Source: Bdellovibrionales bacterium
GTDB lineage: Bacteria > Bdellovibrionota > Bdellovibrionia > Bdellovibrionales > DASUEL01
Direction: 5' to 3'
Assembly: GCA_050250255.1 (NCBI GenBank)
Contig: JBFWOZ010000052.1
Location: forward strand, 1-18,259
DNA length: 18,259 nt
Shown here: positions 3,489 through 16,974 of the stretch, one piece after another
How positions within the stretch are numbered: the first letter of the stretch is position 1
Layout: each line of letters starts with the position of its first letter
The notes under the pieces: model-generated
The model's database searches: none
Told to the model about the DNA's origin: nothing
The model's input: only the letters and a program-made list of their open reading frames with translations
Position numbers and translations under genes: made by a program

Positions 3489-3920
3489 TCAGAATTGCGG
3501 CTTCACTTTTTCCCACCCATATATATGACCTAGGGATAAGGCCGAAATTCCAACAAGTACCAGCTCTATTGAATGTTGCCAAACTCCTATGAGAAGAACA
3601 ATAAAGCCAATAGAATGAGCGATAATGTTGAAGGGGTGCAAATGCAAAAGAACAATTTTTCCTAAGGTTGTCTCAGCGAGTTTCAGTGGGTCTACTGTAC
3701 TCACAGATGCATAAGAGATAAGACGATACGCGACAAGTACTCCTAAGGCCATCATCCAATTTTGATACCACATAAAGTAAACGACCCAAGGTAATCCTGC
3801 CATTTCTATAAACAAACTTCGAGGGTGTGCACGCTTCAACACATATCTTTTCAATGATGTTAGTTCGAAAGTTGATTCATCAGCGTAAAATTCACCTTTA
3901 TAAATCACTGTAGTATTCAC
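3489..3920 (-). CDS. Hypothetical membrane protein (143 aa)
   Basis: GTG start with AAGGAG RBS, about four hydrophobic segments, internally repeated HP...W pattern (AHPRSL..FMW / LHPFNI..GVW), and a sigma54 motif upstream. Confidence 0.75.
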   Translation of the reverse strand: MNTTVIYKGEFYADESTFELTSLKRYVLKRAHPRSLFIEMAGLPWVVYFMWYQNWMMALGVLVAYRLISYASVSTVDPLKLAETTLGKIVLLHLHPFNIIAHSIGFIVLLIGVWQHSIELVLVGISALSLGHIYGWEKVKPQF

Positions 3921-3976
3921 TTTGTCTCCTTAGTTACTGTTAAGGAATAAATTTCCTCACATGTTTGCGATTGAGT

Positions 3977-3993
3977 TGCAAAGGCATGACCAA
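3977..3993 (-). promoter_or_regulatory. Sigma54 -24/-12 promoter
   Basis: Minus strand TTGGTCATGCCTTTGCA, exact GG-N10-GC, about 55 bp upstream of the GTG at 3920. Confidence 0.65.
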
Positions 3994-4068
3994 CAAGCAA
4001 AAGAGCTTTAAAGACTTTTGGTGGAATTTTAGATTCTTGTCCTGCCATTGACGCCATGTGCCTGCTCG

Positions 4069-4079
4069 GTCATTATGAC
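4069..4079. promoter_or_regulatory. Palindromic UAS candidate between divergent sigma54 promoters
   Basis: GTCA-TTA-TGAC matches GHCA-N3-TGDC and lies roughly midway between the promoters at 3977-3993 (-) and 4142-4157 (+). Confidence 0.45.
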
Positions 4080-4141
4080 TCAAACTTTTAAAAGTACCTG
4101 TTCATTTCAAATTAAATGTTGTTTTTAGCAAAATGCTGGTC

Positions 4142-4157
4142 TGGCACACAATGTGCT
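4142..4157 (+). promoter_or_regulatory. Sigma54 -24/-12 promoter (predicted TSS ~4168)
   Basis: TGGCAC-ACAAT-GTGCT with GG 4143-4144, N10 and GC 4155-4156. Confidence 0.75.
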
Positions 4158-4179
4158 CTAGTGGTTTGTGTGTTTGCAA

Positions 4180-4842
4180 GTAGCGACGCTAGTTATAGCT
4201 CCGGTGGGTGTAAGTCCCGCAAGTGAAAATACCAGTTGTCACTTTAGCTTGGACCACTCAGAGGCAGGGTAACTTGCCTCTGAGCGGCTGGTCGACAAGA
4301 TCTACAAAAAGTTCGTGTTGTGGATCTAGCAAACAAGCAGGTTTTAGCGAAAGCGAACCTTTGAACTCAAACATCTGTGAACGCTCGGAACGAATGGCGG
4401 GAGATGTAATAAAGAGGCCGAACCATTGAACGCAGGTGAAGGCAATAGGATTGATGAAGATCTGGTAAGAGCAGTCAGTCTCTCTTTAAAGAGGTAGAAG
4501 GAAAACATGATTGTAAGGAGAAATGATGAAAGCGCGGAACCACTTGATGATCGGCGACAGGTGACTGTCGGCAAAAAAGCGTTAGATAAGTGTGTGCTTA
4601 CAACTTTGTTGAGAGTGCCATCGAAACCATACGCTAAAGTTATTAAGTGGGGCGGATGAGATCAATAAGTATTCTTTTGAAGGTGTGACCTTCGGAAGAA
4701 GTACGAGGATCTCTGGAACTGAAGCCTAGCTTCAGTTTTTGAGCTGTTCTGAGGAAATCTCAATGGGCAGTTCTTAAAATGGGAAGTGGAGCCATCGGGA
4801 GGAATAAATTTATTTTCCCTCTCGGTGCGCCACTCTCCTTAC
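4180..4842 (+). ncRNA. ORF-less group II intron (ribozyme domains I-VI, no intron-encoded protein); 3' end 4842 or 4847
   Basis: 5' end GTAGCGACG (GUGYG-like). DI closing stems 4187-4190/4531-4534, 4192-4196/4523-4527 and 4199-4202/4517-4520. GGGTGTAAGTCCC hairpin and a 12-bp GUAA-tetraloop hairpin (4257-4284). GCCGAACC..GGTGAAGGC motif. DII 11-bp stem 4540-4550/4640-4650 with a GUGA tetraloop, then J2/3 GGA (4654-4656). DIII 4658-4713, DIV mini-hairpin 4717-4737, DV 4741-4773 with AGC triad, AU bulge and GAAA(U) loop. DVI 4781-4839 followed by TAC. Confidence 0.88.
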
Positions 4843-4876
4843 TTAATTTATTAGAAAATTCTTAAAAGGAGAATGT

Positions 4877-5875
4877 ATGAATACTCAAAACGTTATAATC
4901 TGGGCTGTAGATCCAACTCAAAATCCAAAAGATTCAAAAAATATTATTAAAGAAATGAAACTATGGAGTAGGGCTCTTGATTGTAAGATTCTACCTGTGA
5001 CTGTGATTCCACAACCCCTTTTTAGAATGCCAATTCAAGTTGAAACATTAGGAGAAAAAAGTTTAAGTAAAATTGTTGAAAAATCTGTTCGGAACTTCTT
5101 AGCAAAAGCAAATTTTAAAGGACACTTACCTCCGCAATTTATTTCTATCCCGTCTTCTTCTCGAAGAACGAAAGCCAGTGCCCTTGCACAATTTGCCGAG
5201 AGAAATGGAGCTCAACTTATCGTCTCTGCTACAAGTGCTCGAAAAACATGGTACCCCCGTATTGGTGGTTTCGCTGAAGCGCTTATTACAATATCTCGCA
5301 CTCCTGTTTTGTTATTGAATCCACAAGCCAAAATTTCACCTCGTATTTCTTCTGTTATGTTTCCAACGGATTTTAGTGGCAGTTCAAAAACTGCTTTAAT
5401 GAGGTTGGCGCCTTGGCTCAAAAAATTGAATGCCAAAGTTTTGCTTTACAACCAAATGGAGACTCCATTCGTACATATTCCAGCGTCCGGAGTCTATTTG
5501 CCTGAATACTATCAAGAGACACTTGCCACCTCTCAAGAGGCTTCACGAAAGAAAAAAGCTAATAATTGGTCCAAGATTATTGAGGAGCAGGGTATCTCTG
5601 TTTCATCTTTAGTAGAAAATCAAAAGTCTATTTTATCAGATGACATTATCTCCGTGGCAAACCGCACGAAAGCTCAGCTCATTGCTATGCCGAGTTATTC
5701 AAGCCCAATTGCAAGAGCCTTTTTGGGAAGCACAGCTCGAGAAGTTCTTTTACAGGCTAAGTGTCCAGTTTTGATTTTTTATCGACCCAAAGCTTTGAGA
5801 CCAGCAAAAAAAGAAGCAGACGAGCAAAGCAGAGCACCATTTGAATCATCTTCTCTGACGGCAAATTTATATTGA
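4877..5875 (+). CDS. Tandem-domain universal stress protein
   Basis: Two USP domains (IIWAVDP...IGGFAEALI..SRTPVLLL and MFPTDFS...FLGSTAREVL..AKCPVLI). AGGAG RBS at 4867-4871. Confidence 0.92.
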   Translation: MNTQNVIIWAVDPTQNPKDSKNIIKEMKLWSRALDCKILPVTVIPQPLFRMPIQVETLGEKSLSKIVEKSVRNFLAKANFKGHLPPQFISIPSSSRRTKASALAQFAERNGAQLIVSATSARKTWYPRIGGFAEALITISRTPVLLLNPQAKISPRISSVMFPTDFSGSSKTALMRLAPWLKKLNAKVLLYNQMETPFVHIPASGVYLPEYYQETLATSQEASRKKKANNWSKIIEEQGISVSSLVENQKSILSDDIISVANRTKAQLIAMPSYSSPIARAFLGSTAREVLLQAKCPVLIFYRPKALRPAKKEADEQSRAPFESSSLTANLY

Positions 5876-6029: not shown

Positions 6030-6091
6030 CACCATTATTGCCAAAAGATCACGTCTTTGTATGAGAGCTTGTTCTCAGCGTATTTGAATGT

Positions 6092-6107
6092 TGGCACTTC
6101 ACTTGCC
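6092..6107 (+). promoter_or_regulatory. Sigma54 -24/-12 promoter
   Basis: TGGCAC-TTCAC-TTGC, a full consensus match. Confidence 0.85.
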
Positions 6108-6134
6108 ATAGCAACTCGTCGCATAGGGGATATT

Positions 6135-7658
6135 ATGAAAATCATTGTATTATTATTAATTGTTACAAGCTCAGTAGTTTGGAGTTCAGAGTCACCGATG
6201 AGTACTCAGGAAGCGTTAAGACGATTTCATGCTCAGCCAAAAATTTTTATGGAGGAAATTCCAACCAAATGGTCTGAGACAGGCCAAAAGAAAAAATCAA
6301 CGTTTCCTAAGAGCTCCATACAAACAAAATCTTTCTTGAATAAAAAGGATTCGTTACGTCAACGACTGTGTACTCAGAACGGTAGGAGGCAGAGATGTCC
6401 TACATTTAGAGAAAATAATATTTCCCTATTTCTTGAAAAGTCCAATCATGTATTCATCGACGAGGGTATTAAAACGACATTTCAAGAATTTTTTGAGGGA
6501 GTTCCATCGTTTCGGAATATTCGAGATATTGATAAATACCGAGAGCTAGAAGTCGCTCAAAAACCTTGGTCTGATACCTATTGGCCTCTTTACATGGGAG
6601 CTCTTGGGCAGCGTTATGGTGATCCAAATTTCCCATCAAGTGACTGGTTGTCCAATTTTAATTACGTTTCAAAATTCGATATCTTTGACGGAGGTCCAAA
6701 AGATCAGCTCGCTCCTTCTGAAAAATATGATTTTTTATTAGGGGATCGAGCAAAGACTCTTACTGAGAGTATGTGGAATCAAGGCCGATACTACTATGAC
6801 AGCGGAGGTGATGTCGAAAGATGGATGGGACTGTGTCATGGTTGGGCTGCGGCTTCTTATATGCTTGCTCGACCTACTAAGTCTGTCGAGGTTACGGCAG
6901 CCGATGGTGTAACAAAAGTGAAAATGTATCCATCGGACATCAAGGCGCTTGCAACACTGCTTTGGACAAGCGACCAAAATAACACGCTCTTTGTTGGTGG
7001 TCGATGCAACGATAAATCGCCACCACGAGACGAAAACGGAAGAATTATTAGCAGTCAATGCTTCGACACGAATCCTGGAGTTTGGCATTTGGCTTTAATC
7101 AATAGAATCCGACAGGGAAAACCATTCGTATTTGATGCCTCTTACGATTATGAAGTGTGGAATCAGCCAGTACTTGGTTATTCGTTCAAATATGTGAACC
7201 CTGAAACTATGGAAGACTCAGAGGATCTCAATCAGTCTGTGATTCCGATTGAAAATTTCAAGAATGACAAATTTAAAAAATACCGATCATCACAGAGTAA
7301 GTTCATTGTTGGAATTTCGATGGAGGTTATTTATCTCGCGGAAAATCTTCCTTCGATACAAGATTACGATTCACCAGATTTTGATAGCAGAATGAGAGTG
7401 CGCTACCTTTATGATCTTGAGTTGAATGAGGGCTGGGACATCATTGGTGGTGAGTGGTACCATAACGCACACCCTGACTTTATTTGGACTCCACAAAGTG
7501 GGACTCGAGCGATGTCATCAGGTGACTACATGATCCGTTCCAAGTGGCAAGCTGGGCGCTCTGTACCAGCCAACTGGCTGTCAGCTGCACGCTATTCCTC
7601 TCGTGAGTCGTTGCCGTTAGCCAATGTTGTAGAAAAATTAATTGAATGGGCCCAATAA
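6135..7658 (+). CDS. Secreted transglutaminase-elicitor (GP42-like) family protein
   Basis: Start revised from 6057 to ATG 6135 because of the AGGGGA RBS, the signal peptide MKIIVLLLIVTSSVVWS, and the promoter lying inside the longer ORF. Motifs PWSDTYWP, LAPSEKYD, WMGLCHGWA, PSDIKAL, DTNPG.WH, EVWNQPV, GGEW and HPDFIW. Confidence 0.8.
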   Translation: MKIIVLLLIVTSSVVWSSESPMSTQEALRRFHAQPKIFMEEIPTKWSETGQKKKSTFPKSSIQTKSFLNKKDSLRQRLCTQNGRRQRCPTFRENNISLFLEKSNHVFIDEGIKTTFQEFFEGVPSFRNIRDIDKYRELEVAQKPWSDTYWPLYMGALGQRYGDPNFPSSDWLSNFNYVSKFDIFDGGPKDQLAPSEKYDFLLGDRAKTLTESMWNQGRYYYDSGGDVERWMGLCHGWAAASYMLARPTKSVEVTAADGVTKVKMYPSDIKALATLLWTSDQNNTLFVGGRCNDKSPPRDENGRIISSQCFDTNPGVWHLALINRIRQGKPFVFDASYDYEVWNQPVLGYSFKYVNPETMEDSEDLNQSVIPIENFKNDKFKKYRSSQSKFIVGISMEVIYLAENLPSIQDYDSPDFDSRMRVRYLYDLELNEGWDIIGGEWYHNAHPDFIWTPQSGTRAMSSGDYMIRSKWQAGRSVPANWLSAARYSSRESLPLANVVEKLIEWAQ

Positions 7659-7971: not shown

Positions 7972-8379
7972 ATGAAATCGATCCCAAGCGTACAAAAATA
8001 TATGACCTATATTCCTAAGAGTATCGGTTTTGATCAATCTATTGAGCAAGCGGTCAGTGTTATGCGGGAACTTCGAGTTAGACATCTGCCGGTTCTCAAA
8101 GGCGGAAAGCTAGTAGGCGTATTAAGCGATCGCGACATTAATCTGGTACTTGGATTTAAAGATGTCGATCCAAAAAATATGAAAGTGGAAGAAGCTTACA
8201 CACCTAATCCTTATTTTACAAAACCTTCTGCGCCTCTTAATGAGGTTGTTGCAGAAATGGCAGAACATAAATATGGATGCGCGCTCGTCGTGGATAACAA
8301 CACCCTAGTTGGAATTTTCACTGAGGTAGATGCATTTCGAGCCCTCTCTGAACTATTAGAAACTCGTCTTAAACACTAA
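7972..8379 (+). CDS. CBS-pair domain protein
   Basis: VQKYMT...VRHLPVL..LVGVLSDRDI and YGCALVV..LVGIFTEVD. GGAGG RBS. Confidence 0.93.
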   Translation: MKSIPSVQKYMTYIPKSIGFDQSIEQAVSVMRELRVRHLPVLKGGKLVGVLSDRDINLVLGFKDVDPKNMKVEEAYTPNPYFTKPSAPLNEVVAEMAEHKYGCALVVDNNTLVGIFTEVDAFRALSELLETRLKH

Positions 8380-8393
8380 CAAAAGAGAAAAAG

Positions 8394-9548
8394 ATGAAAA
8401 CGCTCGGTTTAATTACTTTGATTTTAGGTCTTTCTCATGTTGGATTCGCGAAAGAGCGCAAGGAACAGGCGAGTGTGCGCACGACGATGCATGAAATCCT
8501 GTTTCGAATGCAAGCACTCCGTCCTTATATGGTGAGTAAAGAAAGCTTTGAAGATCCTAAGAATGAACAAAAGATCGCCGAGCAATTAACGAAACTGACT
8601 CAACTTGTGAAGACAGCAAAGCACGACAAGCTCTCTAAGGCCCCTGGGCTACGGATGTCGAAGCAAGTTTTGCAAGAGCATCTTGACGATACGACCCGTA
8701 TTTTCAAAATTGGGAACAAAGATTATGCTCGTTGGTCTCTCAACTCGACCTTCACAATTTGCATGAGCTGCCACACTCAGGCACCTTCGGAGTCTCGCAA
8801 CTGGAGTTTGATTGGGTTTACAAAATTTGGAAGTGATTTTGAGCATGCAGAGTTTTTGTTTGCTGCAAGAGACTTTGATCATGCTTTAGAGAAGTATGAT
8901 GTCCTGATCGACGGGTATCCTGGCAATAAAATAAGGGCTTTGGAATTAGAAAAATCCATTGAACGAAAGATGGCCATTTTTGCAAGAGTAAAGCGCGATT
9001 TTAAAGGTGGATTAGAGAGCGTTTTGCGAAGCCAGAAAAATACAGAATTACCTCAATATGTTAAGAAAAATTTGATGGCCTGGGAGGCCTCATTTCGTGA
9101 AGCCGCAAAACATTCATTTCCAGATCCAAAAACATCTAACGATGAACAAATAGAAAAATACGTGACCCAAGAAATGAAAAAGGGCCTTTGGGATCGTATG
9201 ATTCAGGCCGCGGATCCGCGACTCACTAAAAATCTTATTATCTCGGGCATACTTTACGAGTATCTGAATTTACATCCTGAAACTAAGATTCGACCAAATA
9301 TCCTTTTTTGGCTTGCGCAATGTGATCAAACTTTGAACAATAATTTTTTCTATTCTCTTTCAAATATCTATCTCAAAGAATGTATGAATCATTACCCGAA
9401 TCATCCTGTGGCGAAACAATGTTTTAAGGAGTATGAAAGTAATACGCTTTTTTCTTATAGTGGATCTGGCGGTACTCATGTACCAAGCGAAGTTCAAAAG
9501 GAACTAAATAATCTGCGCAAGAAAATCTATAGAGAAACCGTGCAATGA
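8394..9548 (+). CDS. Periplasmic monoheme c-type cytochrome-like protein with helical/TPR-like C-terminus
   Basis: Signal peptide and a single CXXCH (CMSCH, 8760-8774) at the end of a helical N-domain. TPR-like AEFLFAARDFDHALEKYD follows. Confidence 0.65.
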   Translation: MKTLGLITLILGLSHVGFAKERKEQASVRTTMHEILFRMQALRPYMVSKESFEDPKNEQKIAEQLTKLTQLVKTAKHDKLSKAPGLRMSKQVLQEHLDDTTRIFKIGNKDYARWSLNSTFTICMSCHTQAPSESRNWSLIGFTKFGSDFEHAEFLFAARDFDHALEKYDVLIDGYPGNKIRALELEKSIERKMAIFARVKRDFKGGLESVLRSQKNTELPQYVKKNLMAWEASFREAAKHSFPDPKTSNDEQIEKYVTQEMKKGLWDRMIQAADPRLTKNLIISGILYEYLNLHPETKIRPNILFWLAQCDQTLNNNFFYSLSNIYLKECMNHYPNHPVAKQCFKEYESNTLFSYSGSGGTHVPSEVQKELNNLRKKIYRETVQ

Positions 9549-10951
9549 AAATCCAATTTTTAGGAGCCGCACAGACCGTGACCGGGAGTCGTACCTTGAT
9601 GGAACATCGAGGTTACCGAATGCTCGTGGATTGTGGGTTATTTCAAGGCCCTAAAGAGAAGCGCCTTTTGAATTGGAATCCTTTTATCGAGGCTCAGCAT
9701 CTCGATGCAGTGTTGCTAACGCACGCACATATTGATCATTCAGGATATATTCCTAAACTTGTAAAAGAGGGCTACACAGGTCAGATTTTTTGTTCCGCAG
9801 CAACCCGAGATTTAGCTCATATTCTTTTACTCGACTCCGCTCATTTGCAGGAAGAAGATGCTTTATTTGCTAATCAGACAGGGTATTCCCATCATAATCC
9901 AGCCCTTCCTCTTTACACGACTCAAGATGCAATCACCTCACTCAAGCAGTTTCACATTGTAGATGATGGAATTTGGCAAACGCTATCTCCTGATATCCGC
10001 TTTCGACTCACAAGATCAGGTCATATTTTAGGTTCACGATTTATACAGGTGGCCTATGATGATGCGAATGAAACAAAAATCATTACTTTCTCAGGAGATT
10101 TGGGAAGTGGTCGCTCTCAAGTATTGAAACCGCCTGTCACAGGCCTTGAAACTGATGATCTCGTATTGGAATCCACCTATGGTGATCGAACTCATCCGAC
10201 TGATGATTTGAAAGCTCAATTATCGGCCATCATTTCTCGAGTCGTAAATCGCGGTGGTGTTTTAGTAATTCCTGCATTTAGCGTGGGTCGAACTCAAGAA
10301 ATTCTTCTTTTGATTCGCCAACTAGAAGAGCAGAAAGCCATTCCGTCGTGTCCCGTTTACTTAGATAGCCCTATGGCTAATCATGCAACTGATATTTATA
10401 TCCAACACACAAAAGATCATCAGCTCGTTGTTTTGAATGGTGAGTTGAAACCACCAGTATGTACGAGTCAGTATATTCCTGTCCGCACACCGCAAGAATC
10501 AAAAGCATTAGCGCGAAAAAAAGGTCCAATGATTGTTGTTTCGGCTGCGGGCATGTTGACCGGAGGAAGAGTGATGCATCACTTGAAGTATCGTTTACCA
10601 CAGCTGGAAAATGCTGTACTATTTGCTGGCTATCAAGCGGAAGAGACAAAGGGCCGTCTTTTGCAAGACGGCATCAAAACTTTGAGAATTCATCACGAAG
10701 AAATCCCTGTAAAAGCGGAGATTGCCACAATCGAAGGACTCTCGGCACATGCAGATGCCGAAGAAATCATCTTGTGGGTCAAAGCGTTTCGCAGAGGTCC
10801 CAAAAGAATATTTATTAATCATGGGGAAGAACATGCTGCCAGACATTTGGCAAAACGGATATCTCAAGAATTAAAAATTGAAGTTATTGTACCGAAGATG
10901 TTTCAAGAATTTGATTTGTCGCATGGAGAAATTTATGAAAAAAGAGCTTAA
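9545..10951 (+). CDS. MBL-fold beta-CASP metallo-hydrolase (YSH1-like putative ribonuclease)
   Basis: FLGAAQTVTGS, DCGLFQG, THAHIDHSG, GHILGS, SGDLG, ESTYG, PAFSVGRTQE, GYQAEET.GR, SAHAD and HGE. ATGA overlap with the upstream gene. Confidence 0.95.
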   Translation: MKIQFLGAAQTVTGSRTLMEHRGYRMLVDCGLFQGPKEKRLLNWNPFIEAQHLDAVLLTHAHIDHSGYIPKLVKEGYTGQIFCSAATRDLAHILLLDSAHLQEEDALFANQTGYSHHNPALPLYTTQDAITSLKQFHIVDDGIWQTLSPDIRFRLTRSGHILGSRFIQVAYDDANETKIITFSGDLGSGRSQVLKPPVTGLETDDLVLESTYGDRTHPTDDLKAQLSAIISRVVNRGGVLVIPAFSVGRTQEILLLIRQLEEQKAIPSCPVYLDSPMANHATDIYIQHTKDHQLVVLNGELKPPVCTSQYIPVRTPQESKALARKKGPMIVVSAAGMLTGGRVMHHLKYRLPQLENAVLFAGYQAEETKGRLLQDGIKTLRIHHEEIPVKAEIATIEGLSAHADAEEIILWVKAFRRGPKRIFINHGEEHAARHLAKRISQELKIEVIVPKMFQEFDLSHGEIYEKRA

Positions 10952-11423
10952 AAAAGTTATGACTGAGCAAGTTATCACAGTGAATTGGAATGACACTGTT
11001 GATTTTGCCTATGGATTAATGAAAAAAAATAACTTCAGACACCTTCCTGTTGTTGGTGATGGAAAAATCATTGTCGGAGTCGTTTCTGAAAAAGATTTGG
11101 ATTTAGCCATCTGGCTGTCGACACAAGAGTCTGAAAATACATTTAGTGAAATCGTCGCGGAGTATATGAGCTGGCCGGTGGTTTATGTACCTACAGAAAT
11201 GAGCCTGAATGAAGTCACCAAAATTATGAGAGAGAAAAAAATTTCTTCTGTCTTGGTCGCAGACGATGAGCGTTTGGTGGGCATAGTGACTACAGATGAT
11301 ATTTTACGATTTTTCACTGAGCAAGAAATTGAAGAGACGGCGAATGTTGAAAAAGTAAGGGCTTGGTTTTATAAGACACAAATTGGACAACTGGCGTCCG
11401 CATTGGCGAACGTCGGTATTTAA
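10935..11423 (+). CDS. CBS-pair domain protein
   Basis: Start revised to ATG 10935 (GGAG at 10925-10928). FRHLPVV..VGVVSEKDL and ISSVLV..LVGIVTTDDI. Confidence 0.9.
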   Translation: MKKELKKVMTEQVITVNWNDTVDFAYGLMKKNNFRHLPVVGDGKIIVGVVSEKDLDLAIWLSTQESENTFSEIVAEYMSWPVVYVPTEMSLNEVTKIMREKKISSVLVADDERLVGIVTTDDILRFFTEQEIEETANVEKVRAWFYKTQIGQLASALANVGI

Positions 11424-13110: not shown

Positions 13111-13150
13111 TGACATCCTTATCGACTGTTCAAAATTACGATACCAATAG
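13103..13150 (+). pseudogene. Possible truncated gene start (MANDILIDCSKLRYQ*)
   Basis: GGAG at 13090-13093 and an ATG overlapping the upstream stop. The frame runs into the 3' end of the convergent kinase gene. Confidence 0.3.
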
Positions 13151-14434
13151 TGGAAGGGTAAAGGTGAAGGCCGATCCATGATCAGGTTGGCTTTGAACCC
13201 ATATCTTTCCACCATGAGCTTCAACGATTTGTTTGCAAATAAAAAGACCCAGGCCAGTGCTTGACTCACCTGCGGTTGGTCGGGTGCTTGCTTTCCCATA
13301 CTCTTTAAATAATTTGTCGATCTCCCCATCAGGAATTCCTGGGCCCTGGTCAATAATGGAAATCTCAACCATACTAGAGTTCACCAAAGTATGAAGGCTT
13401 ACAGTTGTCCCGCCATTGGAGAATTTTATAGCGTTATTAATAAGGTTGTCAAAAACTCGCATGATTTTTTGTTGATCAACGACCGTCTGAAGTGAATTGT
13501 TTGGCGTGGCCCCAATCTCAAGCCGAATATTCTTTTTTCGTGCAACATCATAATGAATTTCTACTGCGTTTCGCAGCAGTGACGTAATAGAAACAGTGGT
13601 CTTGTCTAGTTTGGGTTGAGCATTATTTGATGAATGCACTTCCGTTAGATCCATCAGGAGGTGACCTAAAGATTGGCAATTTCTTTTTAAAGTTTCAATG
13701 ACTTCTGTGGTGTGCTGAGATTTATTTTTTAAGAATAGTCCTTCTTCTAGGAGCTCAATGTAACCTTGAATAATTCCAAGTGGGGACTTTAAATCGTGGA
13801 GAGTCGTTCGTAGCATGACATCTTTTTGTTTTGCGAGCTTGAGATCACCATAAAGGTTGGATTGTCTAATTACATCGGAGAGGTGTTCGGCTACCGGTAG
13901 GAAAATATTTATATGCTGATCTGAGTAGGTATTATTTGTTCGGCTGGAAAAGAAAATGACACCTATTGCCTGCATATTCACAATCAAAGGAAATGTTAAA
14001 TTAGAGAGCATTCCGTCCATGATGAGCCCTTTTGTTGAGCACGATTCTGGATGATTGTCAGAGTAAACAACAAGGTTGTTTATTATGCGTGGCGTTCGTG
14101 AGAGGAGTAAAAGTTCTAGACTTTTACTTACTGAAGCTGTGTAGCCAGTTTTTAATTGCGTAATAGGAAATTCCGAGCGGACCCATGTTAACTTCAAATT
14201 TCGCCTAGTGTTGTCAACGAGCGCTATTCCTAAGCGATCAAAAGGAATATGTTGTCGCAAGGTATCGTATGCAAAATCAAGAACTTCTGAAAGATGGACA
14301 TTGGAATTTGATTTTTTTGATATTTGTAAAAGAGGGTGATCGAGATCATCCTCTGAGTATTTAACATTTTGCGTATAGTTGAATAGCTTTGATATTTTTT
14401 TGAAGAGATTTGGAAGCCGTTCGGCGCCTGCCAT
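13136..14434 (-). CDS. Soluble GAF-domain sensor histidine kinase
   Basis: GAF (FDRLGIAL..PRIINNL..SNLTFPL..IGVIFFSS), H-box TLHDLKSPL, N-box NLINNAIKFS, G1 DQGPGI and G2 GLGLFIC. No TM segment. Confidence 0.93.
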   Translation of the reverse strand: MAGAERLPNLFKKISKLFNYTQNVKYSEDDLDHPLLQISKKSNSNVHLSEVLDFAYDTLRQHIPFDRLGIALVDNTRRNLKLTWVRSEFPITQLKTGYTASVSKSLELLLLSRTPRIINNLVVYSDNHPESCSTKGLIMDGMLSNLTFPLIVNMQAIGVIFFSSRTNNTYSDQHINIFLPVAEHLSDVIRQSNLYGDLKLAKQKDVMLRTTLHDLKSPLGIIQGYIELLEEGLFLKNKSQHTTEVIETLKRNCQSLGHLLMDLTEVHSSNNAQPKLDKTTVSITSLLRNAVEIHYDVARKKNIRLEIGATPNNSLQTVVDQQKIMRVFDNLINNAIKFSNGGTTVSLHTLVNSSMVEISIIDQGPGIPDGEIDKLFKEYGKASTRPTAGESSTGLGLFICKQIVEAHGGKIWVQSQPDHGSAFTFTLPLLVS

Positions 14435-14482
14435 TTTAAAACTCCAATTTATTAGACTCTAATAATTTTCTGACCATATTTC

Positions 14483-15493
14483 TCATTTGGATTGCATATT
14501 CAGTGCCGCCGCTCCACACACGATAACTTTGCTTCTATGTTGATATTGTTCTATTTTCCGACTGAGAGTTCGTCTGCTGATGCCAAGAATTTGGCTGGCT
14601 TTTACTTTGTTGTATTTTACTTCTTCTAAAATGTTTTTAATATATCGTTCTTCCAAAGTCGAAAGGGAGAGTGGTTCAGTATCAATTTCAAGTTCAGCTC
14701 TAAGATTACGATCTGTTGGCGTAATCGCATTGAGAATGTTCTGAGAATTAATTGCATTGTCATTGGAGAAGATTGTGACTCTTTCAATTACGTTTTGTAA
14801 TTCACGAACGTTACCGGGCCAACTGTGATGCATCAACATATCCATAGCTGAATCAGATATTTCATATTTATCAATCCTATGTTCTGCGGCCAATTTTTTT
14901 AAAAAATGGTTTACGAGCTCAGGAATATCTATCGGGTGTTCTCTGAGAGGGGGAACATGAATAGGTACCACGTTTAAACGATAAAACAGATCTTCTCTAA
15001 ACTTACCATTTTTTACATATATTCCTAAGTCTCTGTGAGTTGCGGTGATAATTCTGATGTTAACCACTATTGTTTTATCACTACCGATCGGTCGAATTTC
15101 TTTATTTTGTAAAGAACGCAAAAGTTTTGCTTGCAGATGAAAATCCAAGTCTCCAATTTCGTCCAAAAAAAGAGTCCCGTTATTGGCAATTTCGAACAGT
15201 CCCTTTTTATCTTTGACTGCTCCAGTAAACGATCCTTTGATATGACCAAAGAGCTCGCTTTCAAGTAATTCTGATGGGATAGCCGTGCAATTTATTGGAA
15301 CAAAGTTATTGGATCTTCTGGGGCTGTAGGTATGTATGAGCTTAGCTACTTCTTCTTTACCTACGCCGCTCTCTCCAGTCACGAGCACATTGGCACATGA
15401 TAGCGATACAGTTTGAACAATTTCCAGCAAGTTCTTCATTGAAGAACTTGCTGCAACGAAATTACTAAGTGTGGGATTGTATGTGTCGATCAT
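14483..15493 (-). CDS. Sigma54-dependent Fis-family activator lacking an N-terminal regulatory domain
   Basis: The AAA+ domain begins about 10 aa after Met. [39 protein letters not shown] and [11 protein letters not shown] are present. Confidence 0.9.
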   Translation of the reverse strand: MIDTYNPTLSNFVAASSSMKNLLEIVQTVSLSCANVLVTGESGVGKEEVAKLIHTYSPRRSNNFVPINCTAIPSELLESELFGHIKGSFTGAVKDKKGLFEIANNGTLFLDEIGDLDFHLQAKLLRSLQNKEIRPIGSDKTIVVNIRIITATHRDLGIYVKNGKFREDLFYRLNVVPIHVPPLREHPIDIPELVNHFLKKLAAEHRIDKYEISDSAMDMLMHHSWPGNVRELQNVIERVTIFSNDNAINSQNILNAITPTDRNLRAELEIDTEPLSLSTLEERYIKNILEEVKYNKVKASQILGISRRTLSRKIEQYQHRSKVIVCGAAALNMQSK

Positions 15494-15939: not shown

Positions 15940-16443
15940 TTATGTCATAAGATGTTTCCGATCAATTGCAGCAAATGTACGATCGAATCTTTCTTTCCGC
16001 TCTTGTCTATTAAATTTTTCATTTTGTACCTGGCGTTGAACAAGTCTGTCTAAGCCATTCATTTCTTGTGCAATAAGCTGTAAAACATCATCTGATGAAA
16101 CGAGACCGAAAGCATTTCCTGCGTCATCTGTGACAATAATTCGTCGAACGCCCTCTCTCTCCATCTTGTCAATAACAGAAGAAATCCCTTCACTTTTTGT
16201 AACCTGAACGACATTTTTGGACATGACATCTTCCACCAAAGTTGTGTGTGGTAAGTTTTCAGCGACCACACCTAGGACGATGTCACGATCGGTTAAGATT
16301 CCGACGGGCTTGTTCTTGCCATTAGATTCAACAACAACAACTCCGCCTACATGATATTTCTTCATCAGGCGCGCAGCGTGCTGCAGGGTTGCAGTACGCT
16401 CGACGCTGATAAGTTTCTGTGAACATAAATCTGAGATTGGCAT
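15940..16443 (-). CDS. CBS-pair domain protein
   Basis: AARLMKKYHVGGVVVV..PVGILTDRDIV and GVRRIIV..GLVSSDDVL. Confidence 0.93.
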   Translation of the reverse strand: MPISDLCSQKLISVERTATLQHAARLMKKYHVGGVVVVESNGKNKPVGILTDRDIVLGVVAENLPHTTLVEDVMSKNVVQVTKSEGISSVIDKMEREGVRRIIVTDDAGNAFGLVSSDDVLQLIAQEMNGLDRLVQRQVQNEKFNRQERKERFDRTFAAIDRKHLMT

Positions 16444-16456
16444 AAAGTTTTCCTTT

Positions 16457-16921
16457 TTAATTATGAATTGGAATTTGTTTTGTGTTGACCGCTTCGGTTT
16501 TTGGAACTGTAATAGTTAAAACACCGTTATTAAAATTTGCATCAACCTTTTTTTCATCTACAGAGCCAGGAAGTGTAAAGCTTCTTGTATAAGCACCATA
16601 AGAAATTTCTGATAAAAACTTCTTTTTAGTCTCCTTTTTCTTTTCTTCTTTTCGTTCTGCGCTAACTGTTAACTGATTTTTGTCAATTTCCACCTTAACT
16701 TGATCTTTGGTAACGCCAGGTAGATCAAACTTCATAACATAGTTATTGCCTTCATCTACAATTTCACACGAAGGCGAAAAGTTAAATTCTTGCAATCCAT
16801 TTTTCTTTTTTAGCGTTAACATTTCGTTAAATAGGCGATCAAAGGAATCATCAAATTGCGAAAGTTCGCGAAATGTATTCATTTTCTTATTATCAAACCA
16901 AAGTTCTAGTGCATTAGACAT
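16457..16921 (-). CDS. Hsp20/alpha-crystallin small heat shock protein
   Basis: FDLPGV.KDQVKV..LTVSAER, EISYGAYTRSFTLP and A.FNNGVLTITVPK. AAGGAGG RBS. Confidence 0.96.
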   Translation of the reverse strand: MSNALELWFDNKKMNTFRELSQFDDSFDRLFNEMLTLKKKNGLQEFNFSPSCEIVDEGNNYVMKFDLPGVTKDQVKVEIDKNQLTVSAERKEEKKKETKKKFLSEISYGAYTRSFTLPGSVDEKKVDANFNNGVLTITVPKTEAVNTKQIPIHN

Positions 16922-16957
16922 ATTGTCCTCCTTAAAAAGGTTGTTGCAGATTTATAA

Positions 16958-16974
16958 AGCAATGAGAGTGCCAA
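16958..16974 (-). promoter_or_regulatory. Sigma54 -24/-12 promoter of hsp20-CBS
   Basis: Minus strand TTGGCAC-TCTCA-TTGCT, a full consensus match. Confidence 0.85.

Follow-up and report, generated by a model that had tools for sequence, protein, structure and literature searches.

A putative stand-alone group II ribozyme gene at a sigma-54 promoter in Bdellovibrionota

Introduction

Group II introns are familiar in bacteria as selfish retroelements. When a group II fold that encodes no protein is found between genes, is it an intron, the remnant of one, or a gene in its own right? This question is raised by an 18,259-nucleotide stretch of DNA (hereafter the window) from contig JBFWOZ010000052.1 of a Bdellovibrionales bacterium (GenBank assembly GCA_050250255.1), in which a 956-bp intergenic gap contains one long structured RNA on the plus strand. 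A sequence-only reading of the window had described a complete, protein-free group II intron ribozyme at 4180-4847, hidden in an intergenic region. We find that the locus was correctly placed and that its true span is slightly wider, from 4142 (the promoter) or 4168-4170 (the start of the RNA) to about 4836-4840. The label of a hidden intron did not hold up: the RNA abuts a sigma-54 promoter, its flanks carry nothing like an intron-binding site (IBS), many of its relatives end in a hairpin followed by a U-run, and paralogs in one genome were duplicated from promoter to terminator. We judge it slightly better than even that 4168-4836 (+) is an exon-less, stand-alone group II ribozyme gene, domesticated, regulated by stress from a sigma-54 promoter and predicted to act in trans.

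Results

A six-domain fold with covariation in every domain

Folded on its own, the window RNA had a minimum free energy of -239.2 kcal/mol, compared with -191.5 ± 5.8 kcal/mol in 20 shuffles (z = -8.29). Homologs were collected by BLAST in 384 genomes of the same order, which gave matches in 38, including the genome of the window (G000; 3.09 Mb, 95 contigs, 99.2% complete), followed by a profile search of the loci. The resulting alignment (A1) comprises 27 sequences, the window and 26 distinct full-length homologs, in 924 columns with 66% mean column identity. The 26 homologs are 750-830 nt long, and none has an open reading frame (ORF) in domain 4 (D4).

RNAalifold applied to A1 gave 221 pairs in six domains, with compensatory changes in 174 of them, and the structure together with the pair counts places the domains in the canonical order D1 to D6. 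For these counts two tertiary pairings were added to the RNAalifold structure, giving 228 pairs, and controls were prepared by sliding the partners by 1-3 columns. Over the 228 pairs, 94.5% of cells were paired (35.5-45.9% in the slid controls), 180 pairs had changed on both sides (71-92 in the controls), and the covariation score was 0.487 (about 0.1 in the controls). None of 500 shuffles reached any of the observed pairing measures. Covariation among homologs, which had been named as a check on the six-domain fold drawn by hand, is therefore abundant, is present in all domains and lies far beyond chance.

The first tertiary pairing, alpha-alpha', had changed on both sides in four of its five pairs and was paired in 99.3% of cells; the interaction proposed earlier is thus real and covarying, at the positions given in Table 1 instead of 4230-4235/4462-4467. 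In the second, UGUUC at the 5' end of the RNA (4171-4175) pairs with a D1 hairpin loop, GAACA (4428-4432; A1 columns 6-10 and 294-298), with 96.2% of cells paired and two of five pairs changed on both sides. This was the only pairing kept from a generic scan for further tertiary contacts, the output of which was swamped by G/U-rich chance helices.

Most details of the hand-drawn fold were recovered. The upper stem of D3 and the GUAA hairpin of D1 are both present, D4 is indeed a minimal hairpin, and D5 is as described, a 9-bp helix with the AGC triad that is separated by an AU bulge from a further 4 bp, capped by a GAAAU loop. The GUGA-capped stem of D2, drawn with 11 bp, has only 6 supported pairs. 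D4 is about 200 nt long, structured and non-coding in most homologs, and the window copy lacks about 150 nt of it; this copy groups with homolog L025, which also has a reduced D4 (support of 96 in the Shimodaira-Hasegawa-like approximate likelihood-ratio test, SH-aLRT). In another homolog (L040, A1 columns 47-62) a 16-nt hairpin is inserted in the conserved GGGUG-NAAG-UCCC loop of D1, a loop that evidently tolerates insertion.

The RNA is purine-rich, and its antisense contains stop-free stretches of up to 236 codons that can be aligned between homologs. Antisense coding was rejected as an explanation: substitution rates were 0.309, 0.322 and 0.317 at codon positions 1, 2 and 3, stops occurred in 23 of the 27 sequences, and the open frames were put down to composition. 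ORF callers could mis-annotate such minus-strand frames within 4166-4836 as hypothetical proteins, for example the 76-aa frame at 4344-4574.

A conserved catalytic core that differs from the standard model

RF02003 (group-II-D1D4-4) was the sole match at Rfam curated thresholds in the whole 18-kb window, with 68.9 bits (cut-off 49, E 1.5e-13) over the full model (1-138), and it also matched 14 of 16 homolog loci. RF00029 (Intron_gpII, D5/D6) gave no match at E ≤ 10 in 3900-5000, none in G000, and none at E ≤ 1 in the 16 homolog loci. Other Rfam matches at E ≤ 10 in 3900-5000 (preQ1-II at 22.3 bits, and miRNA and snoRNA models) were dismissed as chance-level. The covariance-model check proposed for the group II assignment thus gave a match in D1, to RF02003, and none at 4741-4842, where D5 and D6 lie. 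As covariation is abundant all the same, the missing match points to a variant D5/D6 and not to an absent structure.

The usual D5 is 34 nt long and carries a GNRA tetraloop. Here D5 has 33 nt, an upper helix of 4 bp and an xAAAy pentaloop (GAAAU in 20 of 27 sequences), D6 is a hairpin of about 55-60 nt, and these non-standard forms probably account for the silence of RF00029. D5 is nevertheless the most conserved part of the RNA: 24 of its 33 columns are near-invariant, compared with 38% of columns in D1, 18% in D2, 29% in D3, 9% in D4 and 23% in D6. The AGC triad and the bulged A are invariant (27/27), the bulge, of 2 nt, reads AU in 22 sequences and AC in the other five, and six of the 13 helix pairs never vary. 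The would-be branch A in D6 stands opposite C in 20 of 27 sequences, is paired with U in five (including the window) and is replaced by a C-G pair in two. Judged by this conservation of sequence, the catalytic core appears to be maintained. The earlier view that the RNA is a complete, protein-free group II fold under maintenance, and no decaying remnant, is supported by the covariation, the conservation of D5, the homologs throughout the phylum and contigs from an RNA library described below.

A sigma-54 promoter abuts the 5' end

The sigma-54 (-24/-12) pattern was found twice in the window, compared with 0.26 matches expected, and one of the two sites directly precedes the RNA (Table 1). In A1, the strict motif lies ahead of the RNA in 25 of 27 sequences, with the -12 C at 12-15 nt, mostly 14, before the first R (purine) of RYGUU, in which Y is a pyrimidine. 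Distant homologs from other families of the phylum, read by eye, had the promoter at the same place in eight of eight cases. Among copies in the genome collection with enough upstream sequence, a set of 32 that overlaps the 27-homolog set, 28 had the promoter followed by RYGU at 11-16 nt. The base ahead of the first purine is mostly a pyrimidine in the 27-homolog set, and a pyrimidine before the initiating purine is common at transcription starts. With GG and GC elements of the TGGCAC-N5-TTGC type at the correct spacing, rpoN present in G000 and two sigma-54 activators encoded in the window, the site would be expected to form a sigma-54 unit. We infer that transcription starts at, or 1-3 nt before, the first nucleotide of the ribozyme.

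Because the promoter directly abuts the 5' end of the RNA, no room is left for a 5' exon bearing IBS1. For the same reason the RNA is likely to be an exon-less, stand-alone RNA gene and not to be spliced from a message.

Flanks, terminators and copies

The loop that follows alpha' (4466-4473; A1 columns 335-344) was taken, by inference, as the equivalent of exon-binding site 1 (EBS1) and was compared with the flanks of its own and of other copies. No excess complementarity was found in the upstream 30 nt (cognate mean 4.85, non-cognate 4.91), and no cognate preference was seen in the downstream 40 nt (5.19 and 4.92). The sequence past D6 is not conserved among homologs, and no 3' splice site is visible there. 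In the genome-collection set, at least four consecutive T occur within 16 nt after D6 in 23 of 37 copies, and the D6 hairpin may double as a terminator hairpin in many homologs. Between the window RNA and the usp gene that follows it, neither a terminator nor another promoter was predicted.

A search of G000 for sister copies, suggested by the sequence-only reading, returned only the single copy in the window. At least four near-identical copies are present in another genome, G215, as shown by contigs that are interrupted within the element. Identity among three 5' ends begins about 20 nt ahead of the promoter, and among three 3' ends it extends to the U-run and is lost beyond it. The duplicated unit in G215 therefore runs from promoter to terminator, which retrohoming of an intron RNA would not be expected to yield. 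The contigs concerned (C10, C23, C27, C30, C32 and C33, with loci L075, L081, L083, L085, L087 and L088) include ones of 7.6 and 13.7 kb that have a copy at each end, pointing to an array in which the units stand 7-14 kb apart. In genome G068, contig C9 carries two tandem full-length copies in the same orientation, about 0.7 kb apart (17479-19705; L073, L078 and L030). Directly after the terminator of the RNA in genome G054 (L003, 2321-2572, minus strand) lies an rve_3 integrase fragment, a sign of mobile DNA beside one copy.

As stated earlier, the window encodes no reverse transcriptase (RT), and the search for RVT_1 was extended to the 99.2% complete genome G000, where it was also empty. 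RVT_1 was not found in three of five multi-copy genomes, G215 among the genomes in which no RT was found, or in 14 of 30 further carriers; together with G000 this makes 18 of 36 carriers, mostly metagenome-assembled genomes (MAGs), in which absence is not proof. The other 18 carrier genomes do have an RT.

Distribution and history

Among sampled genomes, a covariance model of D5-D6 (R1) detected the family in 16 of 151 from the class and in 13 of 151 from the phylum, the latter including, outside the order, 4 of 20 genomes of family f16 and 6 of 20 of family f18. RF02003 added further members in family f26 (5/6), with a GGCAC-N-TGCT promoter upstream. A few RF02003 matches in the phylum have no promoter, like ordinary introns; one of them, a weak match (L108), lies behind a terminator hairpin and begins GUGCG. 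Placement behind a terminator is a habit of class IIC, and RF02003 may be a IIC model.

The exact degenerate D5 pattern was searched in one genome per species, covering 185,579 species, and gave 39 stretches. Of these, 36 carry labels of Bdellovibrionota-type MAGs (Bdellovibrionales, Pseudobdellovibrionaceae, Bacteriovoracaceae and Oligoflexia), two are labelled 'Proteobacteria bacterium', and one belongs to a 'Streptomyces griseus' MAG. The D5 variant is almost confined to Bdellovibrionota. The contig of the 'Streptomyces griseus' MAG (L136) has a Bdellovibrionota-type D5 and a sigma-54 promoter and is most likely mis-binned. BLAST of a homolog RNA against the PLSDB plasmids gave no match.

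A tree of 34 copies built by maximum likelihood has long terminal branches, with a median of 0.26 changes per site. Family labels required 13 changes on this tree, with a minimum of 8 and a shuffled mean of 17.9, and none of 200 shuffles was as low. Since the tree clusters by family and yet is not strictly congruent with taxonomy, the history of the RNA family is old, and paralogy, transfer within the phylum, or both must be assumed.

Genomic context

The RNA lies in a stress island, with two Usp genes, CBS-pair genes, HSP20, a GAF histidine kinase, two sigma-54 activators and a beta-CASP/RMMBL RNase-type gene in the window (Table 1). The usp gene next to the RNA is possibly co-transcribed with it. 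The second sigma-54 promoter precedes the HSP20-CBS genes, which suggests that the RNA and these stress genes form one RpoN regulon. The island is bordered by the two sigma-54 enhancer-binding activators, of which only one contains a receiver domain; the other adjoins the GAF histidine kinase, and both are candidate regulators of the promoter of the RNA.

Table 1 Features of the RNA and of its surroundings in the window
Feature	Position	Strand	Basis or remark
Sigma-54 (-24/-12) promoter TGGCACACAATGTGCT	4142-4157	+	Pattern scan
5'-terminal GUGUGUUU, including predicted transcription start 4168-4170	4168-4175	+	Family consensus RYGUUC
Domain 1	4184-4536	+	Helices 2-21 covary; contains RF02003 match 4202-4352
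Alpha	4232-4236	+	Helix 6, partner 4461-4465
Alpha', then variable EBS1-like loop UAAGAGCA	4461-4465, loop 4466-4473	+	A1 columns 330-344
Domain 2	4537-4653	+	Helices 22-25
Junction J2/3	4654-4657	+	GGAU in 19/27 sequences
Domain 3, with window-specific stem extension	4658-4713	+	Helices 26-27; single-sequence fold
Domain 4, single hairpin	4715-4739	+	nhmmer gap at model positions 571-722 in window copy; A1 columns 612-818
Domain 5, 33 nt: AGC triad, AY bulge, xAAAy pentaloop	4741-4773	+	Helix 33
Domain 6-like long hairpin	4783-4836	+	Helices 34-35; no U-run in window
143-aa ORF	3489-3920	-	Left border of 956-bp gap
Usp-family gene	4877-5875	+	Pfam Usp, E 6.4e-17; AAGGAG ribosome-binding site; starts 40 nt after RNA
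CBS-pair genes, counted as four	Coordinates given: 7972-8379, 10878-11423, 15940-16443
HSP20 gene with its promoter, then CBS-pair gene	16457-16973 and 15940-16443	-	Sigma-54 promoter directly upstream of HSP20
Second sigma-54 promoter TGGCACTCTCATTGCT	16958-16973	-	Pattern match, strong, before HSP20
Sigma-54 enhancer-binding activators, two	425-1813 and 14483-15493, the latter within 13136-15493	-	

Around the RNAs of the 26 homolog loci, a CBS, HSP20 or Usp gene was found within 1.5 kb in 11, and SDR, CHAD, PPK2, BON, DUF2267, P-type ATPase and sigma-54 response regulator genes are also recurrent. In the 14 copies that have a gene just after D6, the genes are Usp, HSP20 (3), CBS (2), SDR (2), YkoF-like (3) and unknowns. 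The three YkoF-like cases (L066, L067 and L069, family f18) share a 94-aa YkoF/Thiamine_BP-like gene that starts 19-24 nt after D6, and the 5' ends of their RNAs read G(U/C)GUGC, nearer to GUGYG than those of the main group.

Other genes of the window include one for a 533-aa protein (6057-7658, +) with a Pfam TGase_elicitor match (E 5e-33); this family is known from oomycete elicitors and is unexpected in a bacterial stress island. At 8394-10951 (+), a 384-aa ORF with no Pfam match has an ATGA-type overlap with the beta-CASP/RMMBL metallo-beta-lactamase RNase-type gene, which places a predicted RNA-processing enzyme 5 kb from the ribozyme gene.

Discussion

Proposed mode of action and points against it

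In the mechanism that we propose, RpoN and a nearby enhancer-binding activator would switch the RNA gene on under stress. The transcript would begin with the ribozyme's own 5' end (pppR-Y-G-U-U) and would end, in most relatives, at the D6 hairpin and U-run, so that the RNA would correspond to a linear excised intron that is transcribed directly. Lacking exons of its own, the catalytic core would work in trans: the variable loop at 4466-4473, which we regard as a putative target-recognition site, may pair with a target RNA or single-stranded DNA, and hydrolysis would follow as in the HYER (hydrolytic endonucleolytic) ribozymes. In the window copy, in which no terminator follows D6, read-through into usp would also be likely. 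A broader form of this proposal, put forward here tentatively as one possibility, is that the phylum carries a chromosomal, sigma-54-controlled, stress-induced gene for a ready-made 'excised' intron, which would serve as an RNA-guided hydrolase or ligase acting in trans on cellular or foreign RNA or DNA.

Several observations weigh against a stand-alone ribozyme gene of this kind. The core differs from that of proven ribozymes in its 33-nt pentaloop D5, which RF00029 does not see, and at the 5' end U replaces G5 of GUGYG in 26 of 27 sequences (RYGUUC in the family, GUGUGUUU in the window). The predicted step of hydrolysis in trans draws on the analogy with HYERs. Two of the 27 sequences are without the strict promoter motif, one having none (L021) and one a TGGCCC variant (L025). 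A terminator scan of the window gave no terminator-like site, no U-run follows D6 in the window copy, and in 14 of 35 copies, among them that of the window, a gene on the same strand, equipped with a ribosome-binding site, starts 2-72 nt past D6. The tree is only partly congruent with taxonomy, family f6 needing six changes for six rows.

The RNA-library cover has to be read with similar caution. The stretch is found in four public runs. Three are landfill DNA metagenomes from one study, one of which contains it entire on a 25.7-kb contig and is probably its source; the fourth is a soil RNA-Seq library (X4), available as contigs. A 604-nt contig of X4 aligns with 4177-4775, differing by 48 mismatches and 6 gaps; it carries no flanking sequence and comes from a 91%-identical relative that shares the small D4 of the window, and it begins 7-9 nt past the predicted start and stops in J5/6, before D6. 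When the same library was compared with homolog L023 (RNA at 1359-2165) at a likeness of at least 80%, 22 contigs of 186-746 nt fell within 1356-2135 and none on the flanks, a zero that says little and was not counted as evidence alone, as the flanks of relatives are not conserved. The X4 contigs show neither ends nor strand, and an RNA library may hold DNA. They fit discrete, fairly abundant RNAs from many members of the family.

Alternative explanations

The main rival, which we consider unlikely, is a cis-acting leader. Here one sigma-54 transcript would contain the ribozyme and the downstream stress gene (usp), and the RNA would either cut itself by hydrolysis at the former 3' splice site or form a structured 5' cap that controls mRNA stability or translation. 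The closely spaced downstream genes in 14 of 35 copies argue for a leader, as do the YkoF-like gene shared by the three closest f18 homologs and, in the window, the direct path from D6 to usp, with no terminator or other promoter in between. However, the downstream gene varies by lineage and is missing altogether within 400 nt on the same strand in another 14 of the 35 copies. The U-run that directly follows D6 in 23 of 37 copies, the end of identity between the G215 paralogs at the U-run, the unconserved post-D6 sequence with no visible 3' splice site, and the failure of the RNA-library contigs to extend into a downstream gene also speak against it. Roles in cis and in trans could coexist. 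More doubtful is a structured RNA that no longer uses catalysis, its fold having been co-opted in the stress response as a scaffold, sponge or sensor (of protein or Mg2+), like OLE. A setting in a stress island would suit such an RNA, and so would a 5' end (RYGUUC) and a D6 that have drifted from the splice-competent consensus and a D5 that is one nucleotide short, has a pentaloop in place of GNRA and, with D6, leaves RF00029 silent. Against this, D5 is kept in sequence and not in pairing alone, with its six invariant pairs out of 13 and its AGC and bulged A in all 27 sequences, whereas the other helices covary freely; this contrast is the pattern predicted by a working active site.

It is very unlikely that the RNA is a true ORF-less intron inserted 0-3 nt into sigma-54 transcripts and spliced from the 5' ends of stress mRNAs, by itself or with a trans maturase. 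A 5' exon of 0-3 nt is too short for IBS1, and no cognate complementarity was found. The U-runs, the 14 of 35 copies with no same-strand gene within 400 nt and the G215 paralogs, which share the promoter and about 20 nt upstream that RNA retrohoming would not copy, are equally hard to reconcile with splicing, and no near-identical copies are common to different families (median terminal branch 0.26). Such an intron would account for the six domains in canonical order, for the GUGUG with which the window RNA starts, for the RT in 18 of 36 carrier genomes and for the multi-copy state of some copies, but G000 itself has one copy and no RT. That the RNA is a functionless, decaying remnant of a dead intron we find scarcely credible. 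The loss of about 150 nt of D4 in the window copy and the lack of an RT could be so explained; yet every helix is maintained by compensatory changes, the RNA is spread over several families and classes of the phylum, always with a promoter, and RNA-library contigs come from many members, including the 91%-identical relative with the same small D4. We therefore keep to the stand-alone ribozyme gene as the explanation to be preferred.

Significance and relation to known systems

On this explanation, the family would have kept the catalytic core, shed exons and protein, gained a regulated promoter of its own and evolved by compensatory changes across Bdellovibrionota, in which case the ribozyme itself, and not the reverse transcriptase, would have been domesticated. 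Should the RNA prove active, the role of a free group II ribozyme in the cell becomes directly testable, and HYERs can be compared with a family of compact natural ribozymes whose D5 departs from the standard form. If it does act in trans, it would be a bacterial parallel to the group II introns that became the trans-acting spliceosomal RNAs. Surveys based on D5 or on RT miss such RNAs, and no description of a promoter-fused or stand-alone exon-less group II ribozyme gene was found in the open-access and bioRxiv literature searched.

According to excerpts of PMC4424553, ORF-less introns are rare in bacteria, depend on related RT-bearing introns and nearly always stand beside them, and surveys are likely to have missed few of them, save any with a domain V unlike those already known. 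The unusual D5 of the present RNA fits that remark on introns missed by D5 surveys. The lone independent ORF-less bacterial intron named in those excerpts, C.te.I1 of Clostridium tetani, is likewise found in a genome with no related intron-encoded protein (IEP); it interrupts a transcript and splices, whereas the present RNA has no 5' exon. With RF02003-type bacterial introns (clan CL00102) the RNA shares the full D1 model match, the D1-D6 order, alpha-alpha' and, in D5, the AGC triad and a bulge of 2 nt. It differs from them in having no IEP or RT and no IBS/EBS match to its flanks, in the promoter at its 5' end, in RYGUUC instead of GUGYG, and in the missing RF00029 match.

Two classes of group II-derived RNA come closer in other respects. 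The CP group II RNAs (Roth et al. 2021, PMC8637638), as portrayed in the abstracted parts of that report, are permuted to D5-D6-D1-D4, and a short internal 'exon' is circularised by back-splicing. Like them, the present family was recognised by comparative genomics as a class of large non-coding RNAs descended from group II ribozymes, and it is no mobile intron with an RT; unlike them, it keeps the canonical order and has no evident internal or flanking exon. IIE and IIF introns serve in portions of PMC3753933 as examples of compact group II ribozymes of bacteria that can react purely by hydrolysis. HYERs, in the extracts of PMC12990946 and PMC11754743 that concern them, are class IIC introns with no ORF, and they cleave RNA and DNA hydrolytically by way of a 6-nt target site. 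Both they and the present RNA are protein-free group II ribozymes of about 0.6 kb, kept with no intron-encoded protein and multi-copy in some genomes (here G215, with at least four copies). By analogy with them, a loop near the active site could be the target-recognition site, and hydrolysis in trans is the activity predicted here. In contrast to HYERs as described in those extracts, the present RNA is fused to a promoter, has no exon-like flanks, is single-copy in G000, is situated in stress islands and has a D5 of 33 nt closed by a pentaloop.

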